Origin: Candidatus Bathyarchaeota archaeon
GTDB taxonomy: Archaea > Thermoproteota > Bathyarchaeia > Bathyarchaeales > Bathycorpusculaceae
DNA: 64,000 bases
Direction of reading: 5' to 3'
Assembly (NCBI GenBank): GCA_963770935.1
Contig: CAVYRJ010000004.1
Coordinates: 1-64,000, forward strand
Both the position numbers and the translations under genes were made by a program. A model generated the notes under the pieces. That model made no database searches and had not been told where the DNA came from. It saw only the letters and a list, made by a program, of their open reading frames with translations. This document shows, piece by piece, positions 23,706 to 58,457 of this stretch; position 1 is the first letter of the stretch; each line of letters starts with the position of its first letter.

Positions 23706-24176
23706 ATGGACAAGCAAGAAGAGTTTAATCAAGTAAAAATTTTCGTTGTTAAAACAACAACCGGTCAAGAACGCAACGTAGCGCGTTTGATCGCGTCAAA
23801 AGTGGAGATGGCTCATATTCCAATAAAGGCTCTTCTTGTACCAGACACACTCAAAGGTTACGTTTTCATTGAAGCAGATGGACCACACCTAGTGGAAGAA
23901 GCAATCACAGGAGTAAGACACGTACGCTCCAGAATCCCGGGGCTCGTAAGCTTTGCTGAAATAGAACGGTACATAGTGCGTAAACCAGTCATGGAAGACC
24001 TCAACGAAGACGACGTCGTCGAAATCACCGGCGGACCCTTCAAAGGCATGCGCGCTAAAATCACAAGACTCGACAAGTCAAAAGGCGAAGTCACACTTGA
24101 ATTATTGGAGGCAACGTTCACTTTGCCTATCACAGTACATTCAGACTATGTAAAACTAGTTGAAAAAGCAAAATAA
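23706..24176 (+). CDS. spt5: Transcription elongation factor Spt5 (NusG)
   Basis: KTTTGQERNV, LKGYVFIEA, KOW GGPFKG. Confidence 0.97.
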   Translation: MDKQEEFNQVKIFVVKTTTGQERNVARLIASKVEMAHIPIKALLVPDTLKGYVFIEADGPHLVEEAITGVRHVRSRIPGLVSFAEIERYIVRKPVMEDLNEDDVVEITGGPFKGMRAKITRLDKSKGEVTLELLEATFTLPITVHSDYVKLVEKAK

Positions 24177-24188
24177 ACGTGAGACAAA

Positions 24189-24680
24189 ATGGCAGATAAA
24201 AAAGTTGTAGAATTAATTGTCAGCGGCGGACAAGCCAATGCAGGTCCACCATTAGGTCCAGCTCTTGGTCCACTAGGCGTCAACATAGTGGCTATTGTCA
24301 ATAAAATCAACGAAATCACAAAAGAATATGCTGGTATGAAAGTTCCAGTAAAAATCAGCGTTGACACAGAAGAAAAAACCTTCGAGGTTACCGTCGGTAC
24401 CCCCACGGCATCCGCACTTATAGTGGCTGAACTCAAAGTAGAGAAAGGCTCAGGTACACCCAACACCGTCAAAATTGGTGACTTATCCATGGAACAGATG
24501 GTGAAGATAGCAAAAATTAAAGGTCCTCAACTTTTAGCCCCAACTCTCAAGAAGGCAACTAAAGAGTTGCTCGGCACTTGCGTGAGCCTAGGTGTTACCG
24601 TGGAAGGAAAAGACCCCCGAGAAGTCCAGAAAGATGTCGATGCTGGCAATTACGAACAACTATTCGGTACTGAACAATGA
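24189..24680 (+). CDS. rpl11: 50S ribosomal protein uL11
   Basis: GGQANAGPPLGPALGPLGVN, GMKVPVK, GTCVSLGV. Confidence 0.97.
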   Translation: MADKKVVELIVSGGQANAGPPLGPALGPLGVNIVAIVNKINEITKEYAGMKVPVKISVDTEEKTFEVTVGTPTASALIVAELKVEKGSGTPNTVKIGDLSMEQMVKIAKIKGPQLLAPTLKKATKELLGTCVSLGVTVEGKDPREVQKDVDAGNYEQLFGTEQ

Positions 24681-24735
24681 TAAGCGAATATTTTTATAAT
24701 GGGTTTCCAATCCCTCATTGGCACGAGGCTTAAAA

Positions 24736-25389
24736 ATGCCCCTAGACAACAAGACCATAACCGAAGCAATTAAACAGGCAAAGGCAAAGTCTGGACAGAA
24801 AAAATTCAACCAGACTGTAGATTTGATTCTCGACATCGTCGAGATCGATATGAAGGCGCCAGAAGGCAAAATTCAAGAAATTGTAGAACTTCCTCATATA
24901 ACGGGTAAACCCAACAAAATCTGTGTTGTTGCTTCCAGCGGAGACTTCATCGTAAAAGCAAAGAATTCTCAAGCTGACAAAGTAATCGAACGCGCCGACT
25001 TAGACGCACTCAGCGGCAAAAAGAAAGAATTACGCAAACTCGCTACTGAGTACGATGTATTCATCTGCGAAGCCCCCCTAATGCCGCTTGTAGGCAAAAC
25101 GCTCGGTCCAGTTTTAGGTCCAAGAGGAAAAATGCCTATTCCAGTTCCACCAAACGCAGACATCGCAGCCCTAATTAAAAAGCATCGCAAAACCGTCGTT
25201 GTGAGAATGCGTAGCCAACCAATTATTCAAGTTTCTGTCGGCTCCGAACAGATGAAAGATGAAGAACTAGTCGAAAACACCATGACTGTTCTCCGAGTGT
25301 TGGATGGAAAATTGAAGCGCGGGTTGAAAAACGTAAAGTACGCGTTCATCAAAACATCCATGGGTGAACCAGTCAAAATTAAAGCTTAA
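24736..25389 (+). CDS. rpl1: 50S ribosomal protein uL1
   Basis: KFNQTVDL, LGPVLGPRGKMP, IKTSMG. Confidence 0.97.
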   Translation: MPLDNKTITEAIKQAKAKSGQKKFNQTVDLILDIVEIDMKAPEGKIQEIVELPHITGKPNKICVVASSGDFIVKAKNSQADKVIERADLDALSGKKKELRKLATEYDVFICEAPLMPLVGKTLGPVLGPRGKMPIPVPPNADIAALIKKHRKTVVVRMRSQPIIQVSVGSEQMKDEELVENTMTVLRVLDGKLKRGLKNVKYAFIKTSMGEPVKIKA

Positions 25390-25404
25390 ACGAGAAGAAA
25401 AATT

Positions 25405-26271
25405 ATGCCGTCCCAACAAGTATTAGAAGCAAAATCAAGCGAAGTAGAATCGATAAAAGACATACTCAAAGAGTACAAATCCATCGGCATCGCCAGTCTC
25501 AAGAAAGTTCGCGCTTCCCAGCTTCAAGAACTAAAGAAAAGCATGACTGGCAAAGTATACCTCCGCGTCTTAAAGAATACTCTTATCAAAATCGCATTAG
25601 AAGAGATGAATCAGGCAGAACTCAAGAAGCTTGAAGCATACTTGGACGGATCAAACGTTTTCTTATTCACAGACCTTAACCCATTCAAACTGGCATTATT
25701 GCTGGAACACGGCAAAGTTAAAACAACCGCTAAATCAGGCGACATAGCCGCGATGGATGTGGTTATTCCAGCAGGAAACACAGGTCAACCTCCAGGTCCA
25801 GTAATCAGCCAACTAAACGCAGTCGGCTTGCCAACAAGAATAGAATCAGGCAGCGTCTATATTAGCAAAGACACATTAGTTGTGCGAAGAGGCGAAATCA
25901 TAAACGAACGCCTCGCAGGCGTCCTCTCAAAATTAGGCATTAAAGCAGTTGAACTCGGTATATCTATGCGGGCAGTCTTCGACAATGGCTTAATCATTAC
26001 TGGGGACCAACTCAAAGTTGATGTTGACGCGACACGCAAGAGTGTTCAAGCAAGCAACGGGGAAGCCTTCGCATTGGCACTTGAAATTGGCTATGCAAGC
26101 AAAGACACTATTAAACCACTACTCCAGCGAGCTCACCAGAAAGCCGTCGCACTATCCGTAAGCGCAACCATACCCACAAAAGACACTATCGCCGACATAA
26201 TCCGCAAAGCCAACGCAGAAATGACCAGCCTAAGCGGCGCTGCTGATAAAGTTAAGCCCAAAGCTGCCTAA
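25405..26271 (+). CDS. rpl10: 50S ribosomal protein uL10 (P0)
   Basis: LRVLKNTL, FTDLNPF, PAGNTGQPPGP, LSKLGIK. Confidence 0.96.
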   Translation: MPSQQVLEAKSSEVESIKDILKEYKSIGIASLKKVRASQLQELKKSMTGKVYLRVLKNTLIKIALEEMNQAELKKLEAYLDGSNVFLFTDLNPFKLALLLEHGKVKTTAKSGDIAAMDVVIPAGNTGQPPGPVISQLNAVGLPTRIESGSVYISKDTLVVRRGEIINERLAGVLSKLGIKAVELGISMRAVFDNGLIITGDQLKVDVDATRKSVQASNGEAFALALEIGYASKDTIKPLLQRAHQKAVALSVSATIPTKDTIADIIRKANAEMTSLSGAADKVKPKAA

Positions 26272-33084: not shown

Positions 33085-33759
33085 TTAGGCACTAATTTTC
33101 GTTTTACTTTGAACGCTCGAAGCAGCTGCCGAAGCCGAAATACTTGATTTATCGCTGGCTCCCTGAAGACTAGCCTGCCCAGTTTGCAGCTTGTAGGCAT
33201 CAACCAAGGTTACTCGCACATTCTCATGACTTAAACAGACATCGCGGGCTCCCGGATTGTTACCAATCTCTGCGACACCAAGCACTCTCAAACACAAGCT
33301 AACGGTTGCCCTCGTCGGGTTCAAGGTTACATCAAAGGACTTTTCTTCGACACTCATGCTGACAAAACGTACAGCCACTGATCGTTTTGCTCCCCATTTG
33401 AATACTACGATAGGCATGGACGTTTTTCCAGCGGCAATCTGTGGCTTCATCATTAACTCCAGTATTGCTAAAGCTGGGTGGAGGCCGAGGTTTGCTGAAC
33501 TCTGATTTTGAGAGGATGCATCAATTTCTATACTGTCTAGATCTAATGTTAGGTAGAATAGTTCTGTTGGGGTGTCTTGTAGGTTTGCGGACGGGTTTGC
33601 TCCTATTGCAGAAGCTGCAGCTTGATTGAAGGTGTGCAGGAGTTTCTCTGGATTGTATTGAAAAGCAAAAAAAATATTTTTTGGAGAGATAGATGCACCT
33701 TTAGCGTTTGGCGCAAGCAGGATTAGGGTTCCTCTGTTCATGTTAGGTTGGCTGGGCAA
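33085..33759 (-). CDS. Contractile injection system tube/initiator-like protein (CIS_tube, Afp7/Pvc7-like)
   Basis: FQYNPEKL.H, L.LDLD, GLHPALA.LE, PIVVFKWG..R...V....SVEEK.FD..LNPTRATVSL.L.VL. Confidence 0.8.
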   Translation of the reverse strand: MPSQPNMNRGTLILLAPNAKGASISPKNIFFAFQYNPEKLLHTFNQAAASAIGANPSANLQDTPTELFYLTLDLDSIEIDASSQNQSSANLGLHPALAILELMMKPQIAAGKTSMPIVVFKWGAKRSVAVRFVSMSVEEKSFDVTLNPTRATVSLCLRVLGVAEIGNNPGARDVCLSHENVRVTLVDAYKLQTGQASLQGASDKSSISASAAASSVQSKTKISA

Positions 33760-33781
33760 ATACTGGACCTACCTATACGTT

Positions 33782-34279
33782 TTATGATTCTTGGGGTTCA
33801 GCTACTGCGGTATCTCTTTCCCAACCCTCATTCTCAATGGTTATACTTTGAATGGCAACTGCGTTTTGCCCCGCATCCAAATCAGGTAGAGCAACGTACT
33901 CTGAGACCCAGCATCGATAAACCCTGTAAACTAACACTATAACTCCCGCCTCGTTAAGTAATTCTATGATTATGTCTTTTCGGAAGTTTTTAAGAGACAT
34001 CGAACCGCTTCCTTTGTTAAAAACCAAATTCGCCCAAGTCTCAAACTCAAGATCATGTGTCACGCCTCGCTCCAAAACAATAGGCGCATAATGGGTTTTT
34101 CCCGGAGATTTCCGTTCAACGCTGGCGTCGCCTCCCTCTCTATATGTGATGACGTCTGTAGTTCGTTTCAGCGGACTCATCTTGGAGACACCCGCAACGA
34201 CTTTACCATCCCACTTGACTCTGAACTTAAATTTCTTGTATGGATCAACTCGACCTGGATTAACTGTAAACTGTGGCAT
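33782..34279 (-). CDS. T4 gp19-like phage tail tube protein (eCIS Afp1/5-like)
   Basis: DPYKKFKFRVKWDG..VAGVSK...LKRTT.VI.YREGG...RKSPG.T.Y..I.LERGVT.D..FE.W, FRKDIIIELLNEAG, CWVSEY.ALPDLDA..NAVAIQ.I..ENEGWERD. Confidence 0.93.
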   Translation of the reverse strand: MPQFTVNPGRVDPYKKFKFRVKWDGKVVAGVSKMSPLKRTTDVITYREGGDASVERKSPGKTHYAPIVLERGVTHDLEFETWANLVFNKGSGSMSLKNFRKDIIIELLNEAGVIVLVYRVYRCWVSEYVALPDLDAGQNAVAIQSITIENEGWERDTAVAEPQES

Positions 34280-34433
34280 AATCTTTTCACTGCTTCTCAT
34301 CTTTCGCAAATAGGCATATTACGTTTGTGGTTTGACCCATGGCCAATTATTGCGACTTCAAAAAAAACTTCCCGCGAGAGGATTTAAGGGTAATTAGGCA
34401 CAAACTAAATACTTCATAACGCTACGTTTCTCT

Positions 34434-36869: not shown

Positions 36870-38157
36870 TTGGATATGATGAAACATAAATTGCTCATAA
36901 TCATTCTCATGACTATTCTTCTTGCATCATCTTACGTTGCTTTTACTGAGCCACTTCAAGCTAGTTCCACTGATGACTGGCCAATGTTCCACCACGATTT
37001 AACTCACTCAGGTTATTCAGCCACCACAGCTGCAGCAACTTCCGCCACTTTGCTATGGAACTTTACAACTGGAAGCGTGATTTGGGCTTCTCCGGCAATC
37101 GTTGATGGTCGGGTCTACATACCTTCTGATGACGGAAACGTCTATTGTCTTGACGCGTTGACTGGCAACAAAATATGGAACTACACAACCTCCACACTAC
37201 GTCGCGAAAGAGGTATAGGTTCTTCTGTTGCCTTTGCTGACGGCTACATCTATTTTGGAGGTTATGACCGTAATGTTTATTGTTTGAGTGCCTCAACTGG
37301 CAACAAAATATGGAATTATACAACTGGAAATACCGTGGAATCTTGCCCTGCAGTTAACGGTGGCTACGTTTATGTGGGATCCTGGGACGGTAACATTTAT
37401 TGTTTTGATGCATTGACTGGGAACAAAATATGGAATTATTCAGTAGGCGGTCTTGTGGAGTCTTCTCCGGCGGTTGTGGACGGACATGTTTATGTGGGAT
37501 CAACAAACAGTAATGTTTACTGTCTTAGATGCTTTGACAGGCGAGATCATATGGAATTTCACGACTGGCAACATAGTTCAATCTTCTCCCGCAGTCGTCA
37601 ACAACCGTGTTTACATAGGGTCTGAAGACAATAATGTCTATTGCCTCGACGCTTCTAACGGTGGGTTAGTTTGGAACTACACAACTCAAGGTTGGGTTGA
37701 CTCTTCACCCGCGGTTGCTAACGGATACGTCTACGTGGGGTCTTTAGTTTTAGACGCGAACCAAACGTATAAAGCCTCGGACATTTACTGTCTCGACGCG
37801 TCAACTGGAGAGAAAATTTGGAATTTCACTGCAAACGGAGGAGTTAATTCTTCTCCTGCCATTGCAGGGGGGTTCGTGTATGTGGGTGATTGGAATAATA
37901 ATGTTTATTGCCTTAATGCCTCAACAGGAAGCGAGATATGGTCCTACCTAACTAAAAGTCATGTTAATTCGTCTCCAGCTGTTGCGAACGGAATTGTTTA
38001 CGTGGGTTCATGGGACCATAACGTGTACGCTTTTGGTATTCCTTCGAATACAAGCGCAATTTCCAAACCCATAGAAACTATTTACCTATTAGCTATCTTA
38101 ATCGTTGCAGTTTTGATCGTTGCTGCAATAATTGTACTTAAACGAATAAAACAGTAA
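36870..38157 (+). CDS. PQQ-like/BamB-type beta-propeller repeat surface protein (frameshift near 37525)
   Basis: Signal peptide, DWPMFHHD, about 8 repeats of SSPAV..G.VYVGS.D.NVYCL.A.TG..IWN.T, C-terminal TM anchor. Confidence 0.9.
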
Positions 38158-53225: not shown

Positions 53226-54101
53226 ATGACCGAAAACCTCAAAGATTTAACCAAAGTGGCCTTAAAAAACCTTGACAAAATCTTTTACCCAAAAAACAAA
53301 GTAACCAAGGGACAAGTTATCGAATACTACATAAGGATAGCTCCTAAACTGCTTCCCGTCATAGCTGACCGCCCCTTAGTTTTAACCAGATACCCTGACG
53401 GAATTGAGGGGGAAACTCAGAGTTTTTTTGAGAAAAACGCTCCCGGAGGTACACCCAACTGGGTTAAGATAAAAACTATCTATTCTTCCGCATCAAAACG
53501 AGACGTTAACTACATCGTCGCTAACGACTTAGACACGCTCATTTGGCTGGCGAATTTGGCGGCGCTGGAAATCCACATGCCCTTCTCCAAGATCAATGCA
53601 CTGGACAAACCTGACTTTCTTTTCTTCGACGTGGATCCTGAACCTCCAGCAACGCTCAGCGACGCCGCCGAGGTAGCTCTTCTTCTTAAAGATAAACTAG
53701 TGGAATTAAGGCTCACACCATACATTAAAACTTCAGGAAAAAAAGGCTTACACGTAGTAATCCCGATAGTGCCGGAACACAGTTTTGAGAAAACGAGGGC
53801 GTTTGTACATGAAGTAGGCATTGAACTGGCAAAAGAAAACGACATTGTTGTTTCCGAATTTAAAGACACCAAAAAACCTGGCAAAGTTTTCGCTGATTAC
53901 CTGCAGAATTCCCCTATGCGAACCATGGTTGTTCCCTACAGTTTGCGCCCAACGCCTGATGCCACCGTCTCGGCGCCTCTGGAGTGGAGTGAGGTTAAGA
54001 AAGGCATAAACCCAACTGATTACAATATTTTTAGTGTGGTAAAACGGAGTAGTAATCCGTGGAAAGATATTTTTGAGAAGAGATGTAAGCTGGAGATTTA
54101 A
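53226..54101 (+). CDS. Stand-alone LigD polymerase (AEP primase-polymerase) domain
   Basis: KIFYP....TK...I.YY, RP..L.RYPDG, FFEKN, ANLAALEIH, FDVDP, KTSGKKGLHV, FADYLQN, PYSLR....ATVS.PL.W. Confidence 0.95.
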   Translation: MTENLKDLTKVALKNLDKIFYPKNKVTKGQVIEYYIRIAPKLLPVIADRPLVLTRYPDGIEGETQSFFEKNAPGGTPNWVKIKTIYSSASKRDVNYIVANDLDTLIWLANLAALEIHMPFSKINALDKPDFLFFDVDPEPPATLSDAAEVALLLKDKLVELRLTPYIKTSGKKGLHVVIPIVPEHSFEKTRAFVHEVGIELAKENDIVVSEFKDTKKPGKVFADYLQNSPMRTMVVPYSLRPTPDATVSAPLEWSEVKKGINPTDYNIFSVVKRSSNPWKDIFEKRCKLEI

Positions 54102-54104
54102 ATT

Positions 54105-54929
54105 ATGGAACAAGAAAACATAGAAGAAACCCAAACCGAAAAAACCAGTGCATCTGCCCCAAGCAGATCTATTTGGTCAGGAAATATCACCATTGGCTTG
54201 GTGAATGTTCCTGTAAAGTTGTTCTCGATGATTTATGATAAGGGTATCGCCTTTCATTTCTTGCATAAGGTTGATGGTCAACCCCTAAAGTACGTTAAGA
54301 TGTGTACTAAAGACGATAAAATCGTGCCTTGGAACGAAGTTGTCCGCGGCTACGAAGTTGCAAAAAACGAATACATAACTTTTGACCAAAAAGAGCTTAA
54401 CGCTGCAAAACCCGAATCTGATAGGCGAATTCGAATAAGCAAATTTGTTGATTACTTCTCTGTAGACCCAGTATACTTTGATAGAACCTACGCGTTATTA
54501 CCTGACAAAAGCAAAGACGCTTACAGCTTACTTTTTAAAGCATTAGAAAAAACCAACAAAGCGGGCGCTGCGCGCATAACACTAAGAACCAAAGAATACC
54601 CAGCGCTACTGCATACATACAAAGGTGCATTAGTCCTTACAACACTCCGATATGCCTATGACGTTGTAAACCCCCAAGACTTTGAACCTCTACATAAACT
54701 TGAGACACCTCAGAAAACCGAATTAGACCTAGCCGTAAAAATCGTCACCGATCTCTCAGGCGAATTCGATATCACAGAATTTGAAGACACTTATATGAAA
54801 CGGCTCCAAGAAATAGTTAAACAAAAGGTAAAAGGCGAAAAAATTCACATCGAGAAAGCCCCAGAAATCGAAGCAAAAGGTCTTATGGTTGCCCTACGGG
54901 AAACCCTCAAACAGTTGGAGCAGAAATGA
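54105..54929 (+). CDS. ku: Ku protein (NHEJ DNA end-binding)
   Basis: RSIWSG.I.IGLVNVPVKL, V.RGYE, VDPVYFD..Y.L.P, AY.LL..AL, F.DTY...L.E.V..K, LM.ALR. Confidence 0.96.
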   Translation: MEQENIEETQTEKTSASAPSRSIWSGNITIGLVNVPVKLFSMIYDKGIAFHFLHKVDGQPLKYVKMCTKDDKIVPWNEVVRGYEVAKNEYITFDQKELNAAKPESDRRIRISKFVDYFSVDPVYFDRTYALLPDKSKDAYSLLFKALEKTNKAGAARITLRTKEYPALLHTYKGALVLTTLRYAYDVVNPQDFEPLHKLETPQKTELDLAVKIVTDLSGEFDITEFEDTYMKRLQEIVKQKVKGEKIHIEKAPEIEAKGLMVALRETLKQLEQK

Positions 54930-56350
54930 GCCGCCACATCTACCGACCAATGCTTGCAAAGGTTGCCGAGGAAGCTTTTTCGGATAAGGACTGGATTTTT
55001 GAAATAAAATGGGACGGGTTTCGAGCAATAGCCTACATTGAGGAAACTTTGAGCCTAAAGAGTCGAAACGAGAAAGAGCTAAAACAAAATTTTCCCGAAC
55101 TACAGGAACTAAGTAAACTTGCCAGCAACATTGTGGTTGACGGCGAAATCATTGTAATGCGGGAAGGCAAACCCGATTTCCAATCACTGCTCGAACGAGG
55201 GCAAGCAGTCTCGACAGGAGAAATCCAAAGACAAGAAAATCGGGCACCAGCCGTCTACATAGTCTTTGATATAATAGAAAAAGACGGAAAACCACTCACA
55301 AAATTGCCTTTGATTGAACGAAAAACGATCCTTAAAGATACGTTAAAAGAGGGATCGAATGTGCTTTTGTGCGATTTTATTGAGGAGAAAGGTGAAACCT
55401 ATTTCCAGCTAGCTTTGGAGAAGGGTTTGGAGGGGGTTGTTGCTAAAAGGAAGGATAGTGAGTATGAGGAAGGTTTGCGGACTGGGAGTTGGCTGAAAAT
55501 AAAGAAACTTAAAACATGTGACTGCGTAATCTTTGGTTATACACGTGGGACAGCCGTTAGGGCTAAAACTTTTGGCGCGCTGCTGCTTGGAGTTTACGAT
55601 AAAATGGGTAATCCTATTTACGTTGGCAAGGTTGGCACAGGCTTCACGCAACAAACGATTGGAGTTTTAACTGATAAATTTGAAAAAATAAAAACAGACA
55701 TCGCTCCCTTTAAGGCCGAAGCGGGTGATGTTGTAACTTGGCTTGAACCCAAACTCGTCTGTGAGGTTGCCTATCAAGTCTTGACAAGGGACATGAGGCT
55801 TCGCATGGCACGGTTTAAACGTTTAAGAGACGACAAAACACCCTCAGACTGTACTATCGACCAAATCATCGAAACCAAAACAACAGAAGCAAACGGCAAA
55901 GACAAGCTTTCTGAATATGCTTCAAAAAGACACTTCGAAAAAACCCCAGAGCCAAAAGCGACAGTAGAAAAAAAGGCAGGTAAGCTAATTTTTGTTATTC
56001 AAGAGCACCATGCTCGAAGACTTCATTATGATTTACGACTGGAAAAAGACGGTGTCCTGAAGAGTTGGGCTGTTCCAAAAGGAATTCCTGAGGCTGGACA
56101 GAAGGTTTTGGCAGTGGAAACCGAAGACCATCCATATGAATATGGTAGTTTTGAGGGAGAAATTCCCAAAGGTCAGTATGGCGCTGGCACCGTTAAAATC
56201 TGGGATAAAGGACACTATGAGACTAAATTTTGGGGAGGCGACAAAATCGAAGTCACCTTGGACGGTCAGCGTCTTAACGGGCGTTACGTTCTGGTGCGTC
56301 TTAAGAGGGCTGGTGATAGGGATTGGCTGCTCTTGAAGGGAAAAGAATAG
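54926..56350 (+). CDS. ligD: LigD ligase domain fused to C-terminal 3'-phosphoesterase domain
   Basis: EIKWDGFRA, VDGEI, FDII, EGVVAKR..S.Y..G.R...WLKIK, VGKVGTGF; PE: Y..KR.F.KTPEP, FVIQEHHARRLHYDLRLE, SWAVPKG, EDHP..Y..FEG.IP.GQYGAG.V.IWD.G. Confidence 0.96.
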   Translation: MSRHIYRPMLAKVAEEAFSDKDWIFEIKWDGFRAIAYIEETLSLKSRNEKELKQNFPELQELSKLASNIVVDGEIIVMREGKPDFQSLLERGQAVSTGEIQRQENRAPAVYIVFDIIEKDGKPLTKLPLIERKTILKDTLKEGSNVLLCDFIEEKGETYFQLALEKGLEGVVAKRKDSEYEEGLRTGSWLKIKKLKTCDCVIFGYTRGTAVRAKTFGALLLGVYDKMGNPIYVGKVGTGFTQQTIGVLTDKFEKIKTDIAPFKAEAGDVVTWLEPKLVCEVAYQVLTRDMRLRMARFKRLRDDKTPSDCTIDQIIETKTTEANGKDKLSEYASKRHFEKTPEPKATVEKKAGKLIFVIQEHHARRLHYDLRLEKDGVLKSWAVPKGIPEAGQKVLAVETEDHPYEYGSFEGEIPKGQYGAGTVKIWDKGHYETKFWGGDKIEVTLDGQRLNGRYVLVRLKRAGDRDWLLLKGKE

Positions 56351-56351
56351 C

Positions 56352-57104
56352 ATGCAAAACCTGTATCTTGGTACGATTGGTTGGAGCTACAATTTTTGGA
56401 AGGGAAAATTCTATCCAAACAAAACCGCCTCAAAAGACTACCTATCCTATTATGCTACGCAGTTTAATTCGGTTGAAGTCGACAGCACGTTCTACCGATA
56501 TCCAACTCAGCAAACAGTAGAGAACTGGAAGCAGCAAACTACAGAAAGCTTCAGATTCTCACTCAAGTTTCCTCAGATAATAACGCATGTTAAAATGCTC
56601 AGGGACTGCCAGTACGAGACGGATGTTTTCCTCGATAGGGTTAGTCTGCTGGGCGAAAAGCTTGGCGTCTTGCTTTTGCAGTTTCCGCCAAACTTTGGAG
56701 TTGAACGTTTGCCTGATTTGGAGACTTTTCTGCAGAAACTTCCAAGCCAACACAGTTACGCTGTTGAAGTCAGAAATAAAAGCTGGCTCAACAAGACGTT
56801 CTTTTCCGTCCTGCAAAATAGCAAGGTTGCTCTGGCATGGGCAGATAGTTCCCTTATGGCTCCGATTAACGAGGTAACTTCGAATTTTCTTTATATTAGA
56901 TGGGAGGGAAATAGAAAAAAAGTCAATGGCACTTTGGGTATGATAGAAGCTGCAAGAGATGAAGACCTGAAATTGGAAGCAGAAAAAATCAAGCCTTTCC
57001 TCGGTAAAATGGACGTTTTCGGCTACTTCGGCAAATACTACTCAGGGTATCCGCCCTCGGACGTAGCCATCTTACGGACCAACATGAATGCGCCTCAACC
57101 GTAA
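56352..57104 (+). CDS. DUF72 family protein
   Basis: LGT.GWSY..W.G.FYP, YA..FNSVEVDSTFYR.P, F.FSLK....ITH, LLQFPP.F, AVEVRN.SW, YIRW.G. Confidence 0.93.
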   Translation: MQNLYLGTIGWSYNFWKGKFYPNKTASKDYLSYYATQFNSVEVDSTFYRYPTQQTVENWKQQTTESFRFSLKFPQIITHVKMLRDCQYETDVFLDRVSLLGEKLGVLLLQFPPNFGVERLPDLETFLQKLPSQHSYAVEVRNKSWLNKTFFSVLQNSKVALAWADSSLMAPINEVTSNFLYIRWEGNRKKVNGTLGMIEAARDEDLKLEAEKIKPFLGKMDVFGYFGKYYSGYPPSDVAILRTNMNAPQP

Positions 57105-57330
57105 CAGCTCCAAAAAAACAACTCAAACAAAAAACACAAACCAATTACATAACCACCAAACTAACTTGCGCATGAAAAACAATTCAACATTAACAACAAG
57201 AACTTTCTTAGGACGGTCCATTACATTCAATCTTCGCATCAAATCCCAAGCACCCCATAGCAGTATTTCAATGACACAAAGAGAATTCTAATAAACAGCT
57301 AAATAACCAGCCAACACGAAAGTATAAGCT

Positions 57331-57837
57331 GTGGAAGGGTATAAAATGGACACGTGCAAACTCTTTGAATTAGCCAAGCCTTATCTGGAAAAAAACGATT
57401 TTGGCATGGCTCATACCCAGCGGGTTTTTGAGATTGCTAAAAAGAACTTTCCGGTCAAGCCTGAACTTGAAGAGCTAACTTATACCGCGATTATTTTTCA
57501 TGACATTGGCGGCTGCACCATTAAAGACCAATATGAGAAAGGACCTCAAATTACATCGAATATCCTGAAAAAGTTAGGTTTGCCGGATCATTTCATCAAC
57601 GAGGTTTGCAGGATAATCAGCACACACCATGATCATCCACAAAACCCTTCCGAAGCTTTCAAGACACTCTATGACTCGGATAAGTTGGTGATGTTTTCCC
57701 AAGAAGAATATCCCTACTACAACGCGCGGGAAGGTTTTGACTGGGACAAAATCGTTTCACTCATCTACTCTGCTAGAGGACGAGATTTAGCCAAAAAAGC
57801 TTTGGCACAGAGAAGAAAAGAGAATGGGAAGCGGTAG
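57331..57837 (+). CDS. HD domain protein
   Basis: HTQRV, IFHDIG, II.THH, LYDSDKL. Confidence 0.85.
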   Translation: MEGYKMDTCKLFELAKPYLEKNDFGMAHTQRVFEIAKKNFPVKPELEELTYTAIIFHDIGGCTIKDQYEKGPQITSNILKKLGLPDHFINEVCRIISTHHDHPQNPSEAFKTLYDSDKLVMFSQEEYPYYNAREGFDWDKIVSLIYSARGRDLAKKALAQRRKENGKR

Positions 57838-57842
57838 AAACC

Positions 57843-58457
57843 ATGTTTTTTAAGCAAATTCAGCGGCATAGCGACAATTTCTCATATATAATAGCTGATG
57901 AAAGTAGCGGGGAAGCGGCGGTTGTTGACTCAAGCTACAATGCTGACGAACTGATTAAAATAATAAAGACTGAAAAGTTCCAACTAAAATATATCATAAA
58001 CACCCATGGCCACTCTGACCACACTGCCGGAAATATAGAATTAACTTCTATCTTTGGAGCAAAATTGGTTTCTCACAAGCTATCAAAGACTCCTCATAAC
58101 ATTTCAGTCGGTGAGGGCGACGAGCTTAGTGTAGGTAAAATCTCCATAAAAATCATTTACACACCAGGACACACTGCCGACAGCATATGTCTTCTTATAG
58201 ATAACCAGAAACTGTTGACGGGCGACACATTATTTGTTGGCGAATGCGGAAGAACGGATTTTCCTGGAGGTAACTCAAAAAGTATGTACGAGAGCCTTTT
58301 TAACAAACTTACGAACCTAAACGATGATGTTGAAGTTTATCCGGGGCATGATTATGGACTTAAGCCTTCATCAACTATTGGTGAAGAAAAAAAGTTAAAT
58401 TACACCTTGCAACCAAGAAGCCTCAAAGATTTCCTCGAATTCATGAGTCAACCCTAA
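57843..58457 (+). CDS. MBL-fold hydrolase (glyoxalase II / persulfide dioxygenase-like)
   Basis: NFSYII, NTHGHSDH, TPGHT, TGDTLFVG.CGRTD.PGG, VYPGHDY, STIG.EK. Confidence 0.92.
   Translation: MFFKQIQRHSDNFSYIIADESSGEAAVVDSSYNADELIKIIKTEKFQLKYIINTHGHSDHTAGNIELTSIFGAKLVSHKLSKTPHNISVGEGDELSVGKISIKIIYTPGHTADSICLLIDNQKLLTGDTLFVGECGRTDFPGGNSKSMYESLFNKLTNLNDDVEVYPGHDYGLKPSSTIGEEKKLNYTLQPRSLKDFLEFMSQP

Follow-up and report, generated by a model that had tools for sequence, protein, structure and literature searches.

A conserved tube and tube-initiator gene pair, with a solo sheath gene, suggests a reduced contractile-tail derivative in a genus of Bathyarchaeota

To our knowledge, every characterised contractile injection system (CIS), whether phage tail, tailocin, extracellular contractile injection system (eCIS) or type VI secretion system (T6SS), depends on a baseplate, both to begin its assembly and to set off firing. 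During the assembly of such tails an initiator ring templates the tube hexamers, the sheath polymerises on the tube, and a tape measure and a terminator set the length. According to the accessible parts of the respective sources, eCIS are defined by eight core components, encoded in one locus or in a complete 'split locus' (Chen et al. 2019, PMC6899500); the CIS/T6SS of the archaeon Halogeometricum borinquense is complete, with 14 structural genes in two sub-clusters and a membrane anchor, and injects toxins (PMC11566945); the tail-like cytoplasmic CIS of Streptomyces remain inside the cell, in its cytoplasm, with a function in stress or cell death and not in attack (PMC12237407, PMC10286715); and the orphan islands of T6SS hold hcp, vgrG and/or PAAR, which are spike-end parts (PMC13098142). 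In Bathyarchaeota, a 321-aa one-domain sheath homologue was recorded in a metagenome-assembled genome (MAG) by Evseev et al. 2022 (PMC9230969), the accessible part of which holds no analysis of genomic context. Here we report on a window of 64,000 nt of Candidatus Bathyarchaeota archaeon (positions 1 to 64,000 of contig CAVYRJ010000004.1; the genome is called G000 below), in which a tail tube gene and a tube-initiator-like gene stand next to each other as a pair, while a single sheath gene is found on another contig. With moderate confidence, we interpret the pair and the solo sheath as encoding a reduced, eCIS-derived tube/sheath polymer that lacks a baseplate, is seeded by the initiator and is kept by selection. 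As far as our literature search reaches, such a reduced CIS derivative, present in this Bathyarchaeota genus and echoed in other lineages, is undescribed; no description of a baseplate-less sheath-tube-initiator set was found in a search that did not extend to the supplementary tables of eCIS surveys, where partial loci might appear.

The pair is laid out in the window as follows.

33782..34279, minus strand: gp19/Afp1-type tail tube gene, 165 aa (PF06841, PHROG 4542)
33760..33781, minus strand: intergenic spacer from tube stop to partner start, 22 nt, read from the sequence
33085..33759, minus strand: tube-initiator-like partner gene of the Afp7/Pvc7 class, 224 aa, TTG start
34280..34433, minus strand: upstream intergenic region, common with a divergent 286-aa gene, delimited by sequence only

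A preliminary description of this DNA had reported two co-oriented, intact open reading frames (ORFs) 22 nt apart, and this is what we find: both are intact and lie in the same orientation on the minus strand (33782-34309 and 33085-33759). The full tube ORF is 33782-34309 (minus strand), and its start was set at the ATG at 34279, where the homologues begin. A purine-rich TAGGTAGG is located in the spacer, about 10 nt ahead of the TTG start of the partner; we infer that the two genes are co-transcribed, presumably from a promoter within 34280..34433. The motifs quoted in the preliminary description are all present in the translations, YREGG, ERGVT, FRKDIIIE and ENEGWERD in the tube and FQYNPE, F.WG and FD..LNPTRA.V.L in the partner, and its naming of a gp19-type tube with a tube-initiator-like partner is borne out by PF06841, by Foldseek and by an initiator profile, as detailed below.

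The tube protein matches PF06841 (Phage_T4_gp19) with 145.5 bits (cut-off 28.2, E 1e-42) in an alignment that spans positions 2-134 of the 134 in the profile; its PHROG match is 4542, 'tail tube protein' (E 4e-22). Its closest relatives are eCIS tubes, with identities of 71% to that in the complete eCIS of G029, a genome of the same genus, and of 54-70% to bacterial ones. The partner scores 23.2 bits against PF19266 (CIS_tube; E 6.6e-5), which is under the Pfam gathering cut-off of 27. It has 145 relatives at E <= 0.001, with a precomputed PF19266 match in 85 of the 120 that are listed, and it matches a custom profile of 53 initiators at E 3.1e-77 and the initiator of the G029 complete eCIS at E 1e-18, with 29% identity. 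An AlphaFold2 model based on 35 sequences (predicted local distance difference test, pLDDT, 76.5; predicted template modelling score, pTM, 0.71) predicts three parts: a beta-rich core with the tube fold (residues ~1-165), a C-terminal helix that is conserved (169-193) and, at 199-224, a disordered tail rich in Ser and Ala. When this model was compared with the Protein Data Bank (PDB) using Foldseek, the top nine matches were all initiator-sized chains (223-281 residues) of baseplate entries, with E 9e-8 to 6e-6 and template modelling (TM) scores of 0.41-0.46; the initiator matches include the following, of which the seven from PVC, AFP, cyanophage A-1(L), Streptomyces and Anabaena range in E from 9e-8 to 7e-7.

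Photorhabdus virulence cassette (PVC): 9qgl_7A, 6j0n_b
Antifeeding prophage (AFP): 6rbk_A, 6rao_G (Afp7)
Cyanophage A-1(L): 8kea_P ('tube initiator')
Streptomyces: 9gtp_M
Anabaena: 7b5h_AK
Algoriphagus: 7aeb_M

The sequence profile of the partner, compared with the PDB, linked it to this class of chains only weakly, through 9rce_H at E 1.3e-5 and, above 0.08, 8kea_P, 9gtp_P and Afp7. Given the initiator matches of the predicted structure and the homology to the G029 initiator, the Afp7-like label holds at the level of fold and homology, while the Pfam score stays below its threshold. A complex prediction made with the tube alignment and partner residues 1-198 scored 0.02 without controls and counts neither way on binding.

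In regards to the sheath, the preliminary description had regarded the module as sheath-less, which is wrong for this genome, since a Pvc2-like sheath gene is present on contig C8.

G000:C8:117745-118821, minus strand: solo minimal sheath gene, Pvc2/Afp2-like, 358 aa (PF04984 and PF17482)

Both families are matched over their cut-offs (PF04984 with 77.8 bits, E 1e-21; PF17482 with 61.3 bits, E 1e-16). The protein aligns end to end with Pvc2 (355 aa; 6j0b_A), residues 9-356 against 8-352 at E 1.4e-57, and also with Afp2 (354 aa), and its best sequence match among solved structures is 9ezm_A (E 2.5e-111), labelled 'Phage tail sheath protein FI'. The gene is surrounded in G000 by NurA/HerA, a NUDIX enzyme, an Fe-S assembly protein and ATP-binding cassette (ABC) transporters, with no CIS gene among these neighbours, and it occupies a syntenic site in G001 and G002.

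The remaining CIS parts were searched for among the 8044 ORFs of at least 50 aa of G000, a genome of 1.98 Mb in 18 contigs that is 91% complete. Pfam searches of the genome found no gp25 (PF04965), Baseplate_J (PF04865), Phage_GPD (PF05954) or Pvc16_N (PF14065). However, the same kind of search with PF19266, at E up to 1, failed to recover the window's own weak CIS_tube match, so that the weight of these negatives is limited, and phmmer and custom profiles were therefore added. Using the 22 proteins of the G029 complete eCIS as queries, phmmer matched the tube, the initiator, the sheath and one AAA protein only, the last being CDC48 (CDC48_N plus two AAA domains). Custom profiles were built for 13 other eCIS components from 3-46 homologues each, taken from canonical loci, and none of them gave a match in the G000 ORFs better than E 0.05 except the ATPase profile, which retrieved CDC48 along with two AAA ORFs that it matched weakly (E 0.007 and 0.014). 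No match in G000 was obtained for the gp25-like sheath initiator (Afp9; profile of 29 sequences), for the Baseplate J wedge proteins (Afp11/12; 46 and 45 sequences) or for the spike (VgrG/Phage_base_V, Afp8; 29 sequences), and neither a cap (Pvc16_N) nor an Afp15-type AAA ATPase was found in that genome, where CDC48 is the sole strong AAA match. Both phmmer and the custom profiles also agree with the earlier statement that the 64 kb hold no CIS gene besides the pair. The genome-wide profile check that had been proposed along with it recovers the sheath and no gp25, baseplate J, spike, cap or Afp15-type ATPase, so the earlier idea of a CIS scattered across the genome applies to the sheath only, and no full CIS was found elsewhere in G000.

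The same partition is seen in related genomes. Among 37 genomes of the genus that were searched, gp25 occurs in three (G006, G017 and G029), whose long sheaths adjoin the tube, and it is absent from all eight pair genomes among the 37; Phage_base_V (PF04717) occurs in four (G006, G017, G025 and G029), and none of the genomes with gp25 and/or Phage_base_V carries the pair. A search for Baseplate_J gave no match in G014 and G241, which are single-contig genomes, nor in G001 or G010, and did match the control G029.

We then considered the distribution of the pair over 120 genomes of the genus, G000 included. A partner of the pair type is intact in 22 of the 120, and the tube is adjacent to it in all 22 (in G238 contig ends truncate the partner). 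An ortholog of the solo sheath, intact and with 58-73% identity over nearly the full length, is found in 28 genomes, giving 14 genomes with pair and sheath, eight with the pair only, 14 with the sheath only and 84 with neither; these counts come from genomes that are not phylogenetically independent. The sheath is a frequent, non-obligatory partner, and the pair does recur without an intact orthologous sheath, in the eight genomes just mentioned, which was the recurrence that the preliminary description had wished to see checked. Where sheath and pair share a contig, they are 506 kb apart in G014 and 732 kb apart in G241 (both single-contig genomes), 491 kb apart in G252 and 249 kb apart in G266. 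The pair is the only thing that 22 Bathyarchaeota loci and the window have in common, in at least three contexts, and no other CIS gene, spike/hub included, is located within 10 kb of the pair in 22 of 22 Bathyarchaeota loci. At loci outside Bathyarchaeota, spike and baseplate genes follow the initiator homologue in 29 of 34 cases, the other five being three cut contigs and two reduced sets. In 150 other genomes of the family, from 70 genera, close relatives of the partner were confined to this genus and to g50 (34-36% identity).

The pair and the sheath are under purifying selection, as shown by the dN/dS check proposed earlier. Pairwise Nei-Gojobori medians of dN/dS (the ratio of nonsynonymous to synonymous substitution rates) were 0.070 for the tube (132 usable of 190 pairs), 0.171 for the partner (69 usable of 190) and 0.118 for the sheath (5 usable of 28), values that are rough because the median dS is about 1.4, near saturation. 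Partner identity between intact pairs of the genus is 50-79%. Decayed copies also exist: G210 has a partner fragment with two stops, G024 a degraded tube, and G032 a tube with five stops together with a sheath that also contains stops. This decay in some lineages means that the set is dispensable, yet it is maintained where present.

In the tube tree, 21 pair tubes form one clade with a Shimodaira-Hasegawa-like approximate likelihood ratio test (SH-aLRT) value of 99, the only intruder being the degraded G024 copy, and a branch of 0.35 separates this clade from the tubes of eCIS in bacteria, in Methanoperedens and within the genus itself. In the initiator tree, the pair proteins group in one clade (SH-aLRT 99) with three initiator-AAA fusions of the same genus and with the pair initiator of g50 (L072), on long branches and apart from all canonical initiators, that of G029 included. 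This clade is without a segment of about 15 residues that 70% or more of 32 canonical initiators possess, four residues are inserted in it at 20-23, and its conserved C-terminal helix, in which Y189, T193 and Q195 are near-invariant, leads into the Ser/Ala tail.

Linked versions of the set occur in other genomes and in metagenome contigs, and some of them carry an initiator fused to an AAA domain. These fusions, of 380-391 aa, are located directly after a gp19 tube.

L108 10957-12105 (G274): initiator-AAA fusion
L109 10847-12001 (G259): initiator-AAA fusion
L111 8465-9640 (G268): initiator-AAA fusion
L097 3034-4176 (Gemmatimonadota): initiator-AAA fusion

In G274 and G259 a 382-aa sheath stands divergent beside the tube, after which comes a CIS_tube-AAA fusion protein of 382-384 aa; in G268 the tube and the fusion are about 50 kb from the sheath; and on the Gemmatimonadota contig the order is sheath, tube, then fusion. 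A Pfam scan of the G274 fusion shows a CIS_tube-like N-terminal half and an AAA domain in the C-terminal half, and both domains are detected in L108 and L097, with AAA only in L111. On metagenome contigs L182 and L183 the tube, the initiator and the sheath form an operon. That of L182 is flanked by housekeeping genes (an ABC-F ATPase, an old-yellow-enzyme-type reductase, a DEAD-box helicase and an acetyl-CoA synthetase), and for 4.5 kb upstream and 6.7 kb downstream of it the contig is free of further CIS genes. An Ignavibacteria MAG has the tube and the initiator only (L089; also L161). At L089 (4231-7392) the pair has an Ala_racemase_N/D-ser_dehydrat gene on one side and, on the other, a 169-aa ORF that duplicates the C-terminal part of this gene and contains the D-ser_dehydrat domain alone, a setting that hints at an insertion with partial duplication of the target and at a pair that could move as a cassette. 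On account of the linked arrangements in G274/G259, L097, L182/L183 and L089, we argue that the tube and the initiator make up a working unit of their own, in most cases together with a minimal sheath. The idea of a domesticated tube or filament, put forward in the preliminary description, holds up and is strengthened by the linked three-gene versions in other organisms.

The mechanism that we propose can be outlined as follows. The set would derive from an eCIS that lost its baseplate, spike, cap, length-ruler and ATPase genes, and would then have been kept by selection. A ring of the initiator-like protein would seed the stacking of tube hexamers in the cytoplasm, a site of assembly chosen because no signal peptide is obvious by eye in the tube or partner protein, and the sheath, where present, would polymerise around the tube. 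The product would be a tube or sheathed-tube filament, the length of which would be unregulated and which could not be aimed, anchored, triggered or loaded as an injector, because there is no tape measure, terminator, cap, baseplate or spike. Its role would be structural or related to stress or conflict, and not effector injection; candidate roles are a structural one, one in stress or lysis, by analogy with the cytoplasmic CIS of Streptomyces, and interference with foreign tails. Altogether this suggests a stripped-down filament rather than a broken injector. A bolder version of the proposal, which we put forward tentatively and consider possible without calling it probable, is that tube, initiator and minimal sheath make a self-sufficient polymer free of baseplate and spike, a new minimal class of tail-derived filament that is possibly still contractile; it would have originated, or spread, among Bathyarchaeota and several phyla of bacteria, and would exist as an unlinked set, as a three-gene operon and as an initiator-AAA fusion form.

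As for expression of the pair, there is only a hint. Two soil RNA-library runs of one study yielded one contig each (237 and 249 nt), 94-95% alike and spanning 33587-33838, which cross the tube stop and the partner start; their source is a relative, and DNA carry-over is possible. The survey comprised six runs with small shares (0.05-0.19) of the sampled words and considered contigs only, so that the parts left uncovered are uninformative.

Several points weigh against a selected, baseplate-less tube/sheath polymer. The assembly of a polymer or filament is deduced from the genes, and in T4 the tube and the extended sheath need the baseplate, so that assembly without one is an extrapolation. 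The absence of baseplate genes rests on sequence profiles, which very divergent baseplate proteins could escape, in a genome that is itself not fully complete. The eight of 22 pair genomes without an intact orthologous sheath mean that the link to the sheath is not obligate, G012 and G260 carry a sheath pseudogene alongside an intact pair, and the pair is found with no sheath or gp25 match in G290, from another Bathyarchaeota genus, and in the Ignavibacteria genome G289. The shared ancestry behind the co-occurrence counts, the near-saturated dS and the possible DNA origin of the RNA contigs, all given above, belong here as well.

Some of these observations speak for a pair that works without a sheath, as a non-contractile tube or an Hcp-like ring, the sheath being an independent leftover or serving another tube. 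The pair-only genomes of the genus, the two sheath pseudogenes, and G290 and G289 would fit this explanation, as would the second, more distant type of tube found elsewhere in 10 of the 14 sheath-only genomes. It is the most probable of the rivals considered here, though still unlikely, since the sheath accompanies the pair in 14 of 22 genomes but is found in just 14 of the 98 that lack the pair, purifying selection acts on the sheath too, linked tube-initiator-sheath operons exist, and incompleteness affects several of the pair-only genomes (completeness is 61% for G239 and 90-92% for G007, G015, G273 and G215). One could also suppose that the CIS is complete, with the pair as one piece of it and the other genes scattered and too divergent, or non-homologous, for recognition. 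The sheath and the tube are truly unlinked in G014 and G241, by the 506 and 732 kb already given, and other members of the genus have a tube and cap pair together with the same solo sheath: in G008 a distant gp19 tube is followed by a 192-aa Pvc16_N cap gene (L015 891-1965) and the sheath is on another contig, which means that CIS genes occur as small dispersed units in the genus. The same tube and cap pair is present in G030 (L011), whose own sheath is more distant, at 38% identity. The Pfam-based first search misses weak matches, and G292 has one weak gp25-like ORF (29.9 bits). Nevertheless, the complete eCIS of G029, G006 and G017 are readily found by the same queries, the custom component profiles, with 13-46 bacterial and archaeal sequences each, recover none of these parts in G000, and the compact operons L182, L183, L108 and L109 lie amid housekeeping genes with the trio alone over about 4-8 kb on each side; we therefore judge a scattered but complete CIS to be quite improbable.

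An alternative that ranks between these two in probability, and is likewise unlikely, is that the genes act in trans, either as spare components that a mobile eCIS or a tailed virus could use, or as dominant-negative subunits that poison the tails of invaders, which would be a form of defence. It would account for the patchy presence in the genus (22 of 120 genomes), where losses recur and G210, G024 and G032 have pseudogenes, for the three or more genomic contexts, for the insertion-like setting of L089 in Ignavibacteria and for the 71% identity of the tube with eCIS tubes of the same genus. On the other hand, no defence-island neighbours were seen, the base composition is ordinary for the contig, and a complete eCIS and the pair were never found together in the 37 genomes examined for both. 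The search of viral contigs gave no close relative and just one distant match, to the partner, at 32% identity, so there is no sign that the pair is viral. Lastly, the pair could be a neutral relic of a deleted eCIS that is intact by chance; complete eCIS loci do occur in the genus, and decayed copies are found in G032 and G210. A deletion relic had been named in the preliminary description as the simpler alternative, but we reject it as highly improbable in view of the 22 intact adjacent pairs among 120 genomes, the partner identity of 50-79%, the dN/dS medians of 0.07-0.17 and the clade structure, in which a monophyletic group stands on long branches from the canonical genes and holds conserved features of its own. 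The reduced tube/sheath polymer with an initiator seed is therefore the interpretation that we retain.

Concerning the surroundings of the pair, its flanking genes are unrelated to it, as had been noted earlier: the nearest are the 141-aa and 286-aa genes, which belong to no Pfam family, followed by DUF7000, GT87-like and PRC-barrel genes, and the Pfam scan shows no relation of any of them to CIS. The 141-aa and 286-aa genes were rejected as parts of the module, each being kept in just 4-6 of 23 loci, and three upstream genes of another context (a helix-turn-helix regulator, a peptidase S51 protein and one without a family) were rejected likewise, at 4-6 of 23 loci. Next to the solo sheath, 8 nt upstream, is a 181-aa ORF (L003 10831-11376, on G000:C8) that has no Pfam family and whose true start is probably residue 60. 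It is 96-97% identical between species whose sheaths are just 68-69% identical, and it falls in small archaeal hypothetical-protein clusters (Atlas), also common in Nitrososphaerota, one of which is weakly linked to Penicillinase_R-type repressors. The ORF may encode a regulator co-transcribed with the sheath, and it was not counted as a module part since it is not beside the sheath in G014. Elsewhere in the window, positions 36870-38157 hold two overlapping ORFs in different frames (251 and 234 aa), both with PQQ-like beta-propeller repeats of one family; the relatives in this family have single long genes, and the overlap may be a frameshifted gene or an assembly error. In 2-kb bins, the AT skew is strongly positive (0.15-0.28) at 1-2000, 24001-26000 and 54001-58000 of the window as compared with the rest.

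Other arrangements of CIS genes were encountered in the genus. The complete eCIS of G029 (L042 and L048; G029:C2:452700-492699) consists of two sub-clusters about 10 kb apart, one with the sheath, the tube, T4_baseplate/DUF6760, Pvc16_N and AAA genes and the other with the initiator, the spike, gp25, two Baseplate_J genes and DUF6519; proteins with PKD domains are encoded upstream, and the genome also has two gp19 pseudogene fragments and an extra 518-aa sheath. A second type of minimal unit is found at L040 (G012:C13, 9801-11398), where a 382-aa sheath and a 150-aa distant tube are adjacent to each other and embedded among five surface-type proteins of 864-976 aa, four of which have PQQ beta-propeller and Ig-like domains, with no baseplate gene nearby. 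Eight genomes (G004, G009, G013, G016, G020, G028, G031 and G035) have Pvc16_N ORFs of 171-314 aa and no tube or sheath was found in them, which may represent a separate exaptation of the cap domain.

A conserved and selected trio without a baseplate raises the question of whether the initiator ring alone can seed a tube and a sheath, and also that of the job of the polymer in the cell, where it might serve as a scaffold, as a device for stress or lysis, or to interfere with other processes. Surveys that demand many core genes overlook reduced derivatives of this kind, which are found here in uncultured archaea and bacteria of soil and sediment. In comparison with eCIS (Afp, PVC and lineage II), the tube, the initiator and the sheath are homologous, but only these three parts are present here and they are unlinked, gp25, baseplate J, spike, cap and Afp15-type ATPase not having been found, and the initiator is without the segment of about 15 residues of its canonical counterparts. 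The haloarchaeal CIS is alike in its archaeal host and in having a sheath and a tube of the same superfamily, whereas no baseplate, spike or effector genes were found with the set described here. T6SS orphan islands resemble it in being small dispersed tail-like units away from a main cluster; however, the parts left in the present set are the tube, the initiator and the sheath, and neither a spike part nor a main cluster was found. The Streptomyces system is complete and its baseplate complex has been solved (9gtp); its sheath (8bky_A) and its initiator (9gtp_M) rank with the nearest relatives of known structure of the proteins encoded by the set described here.

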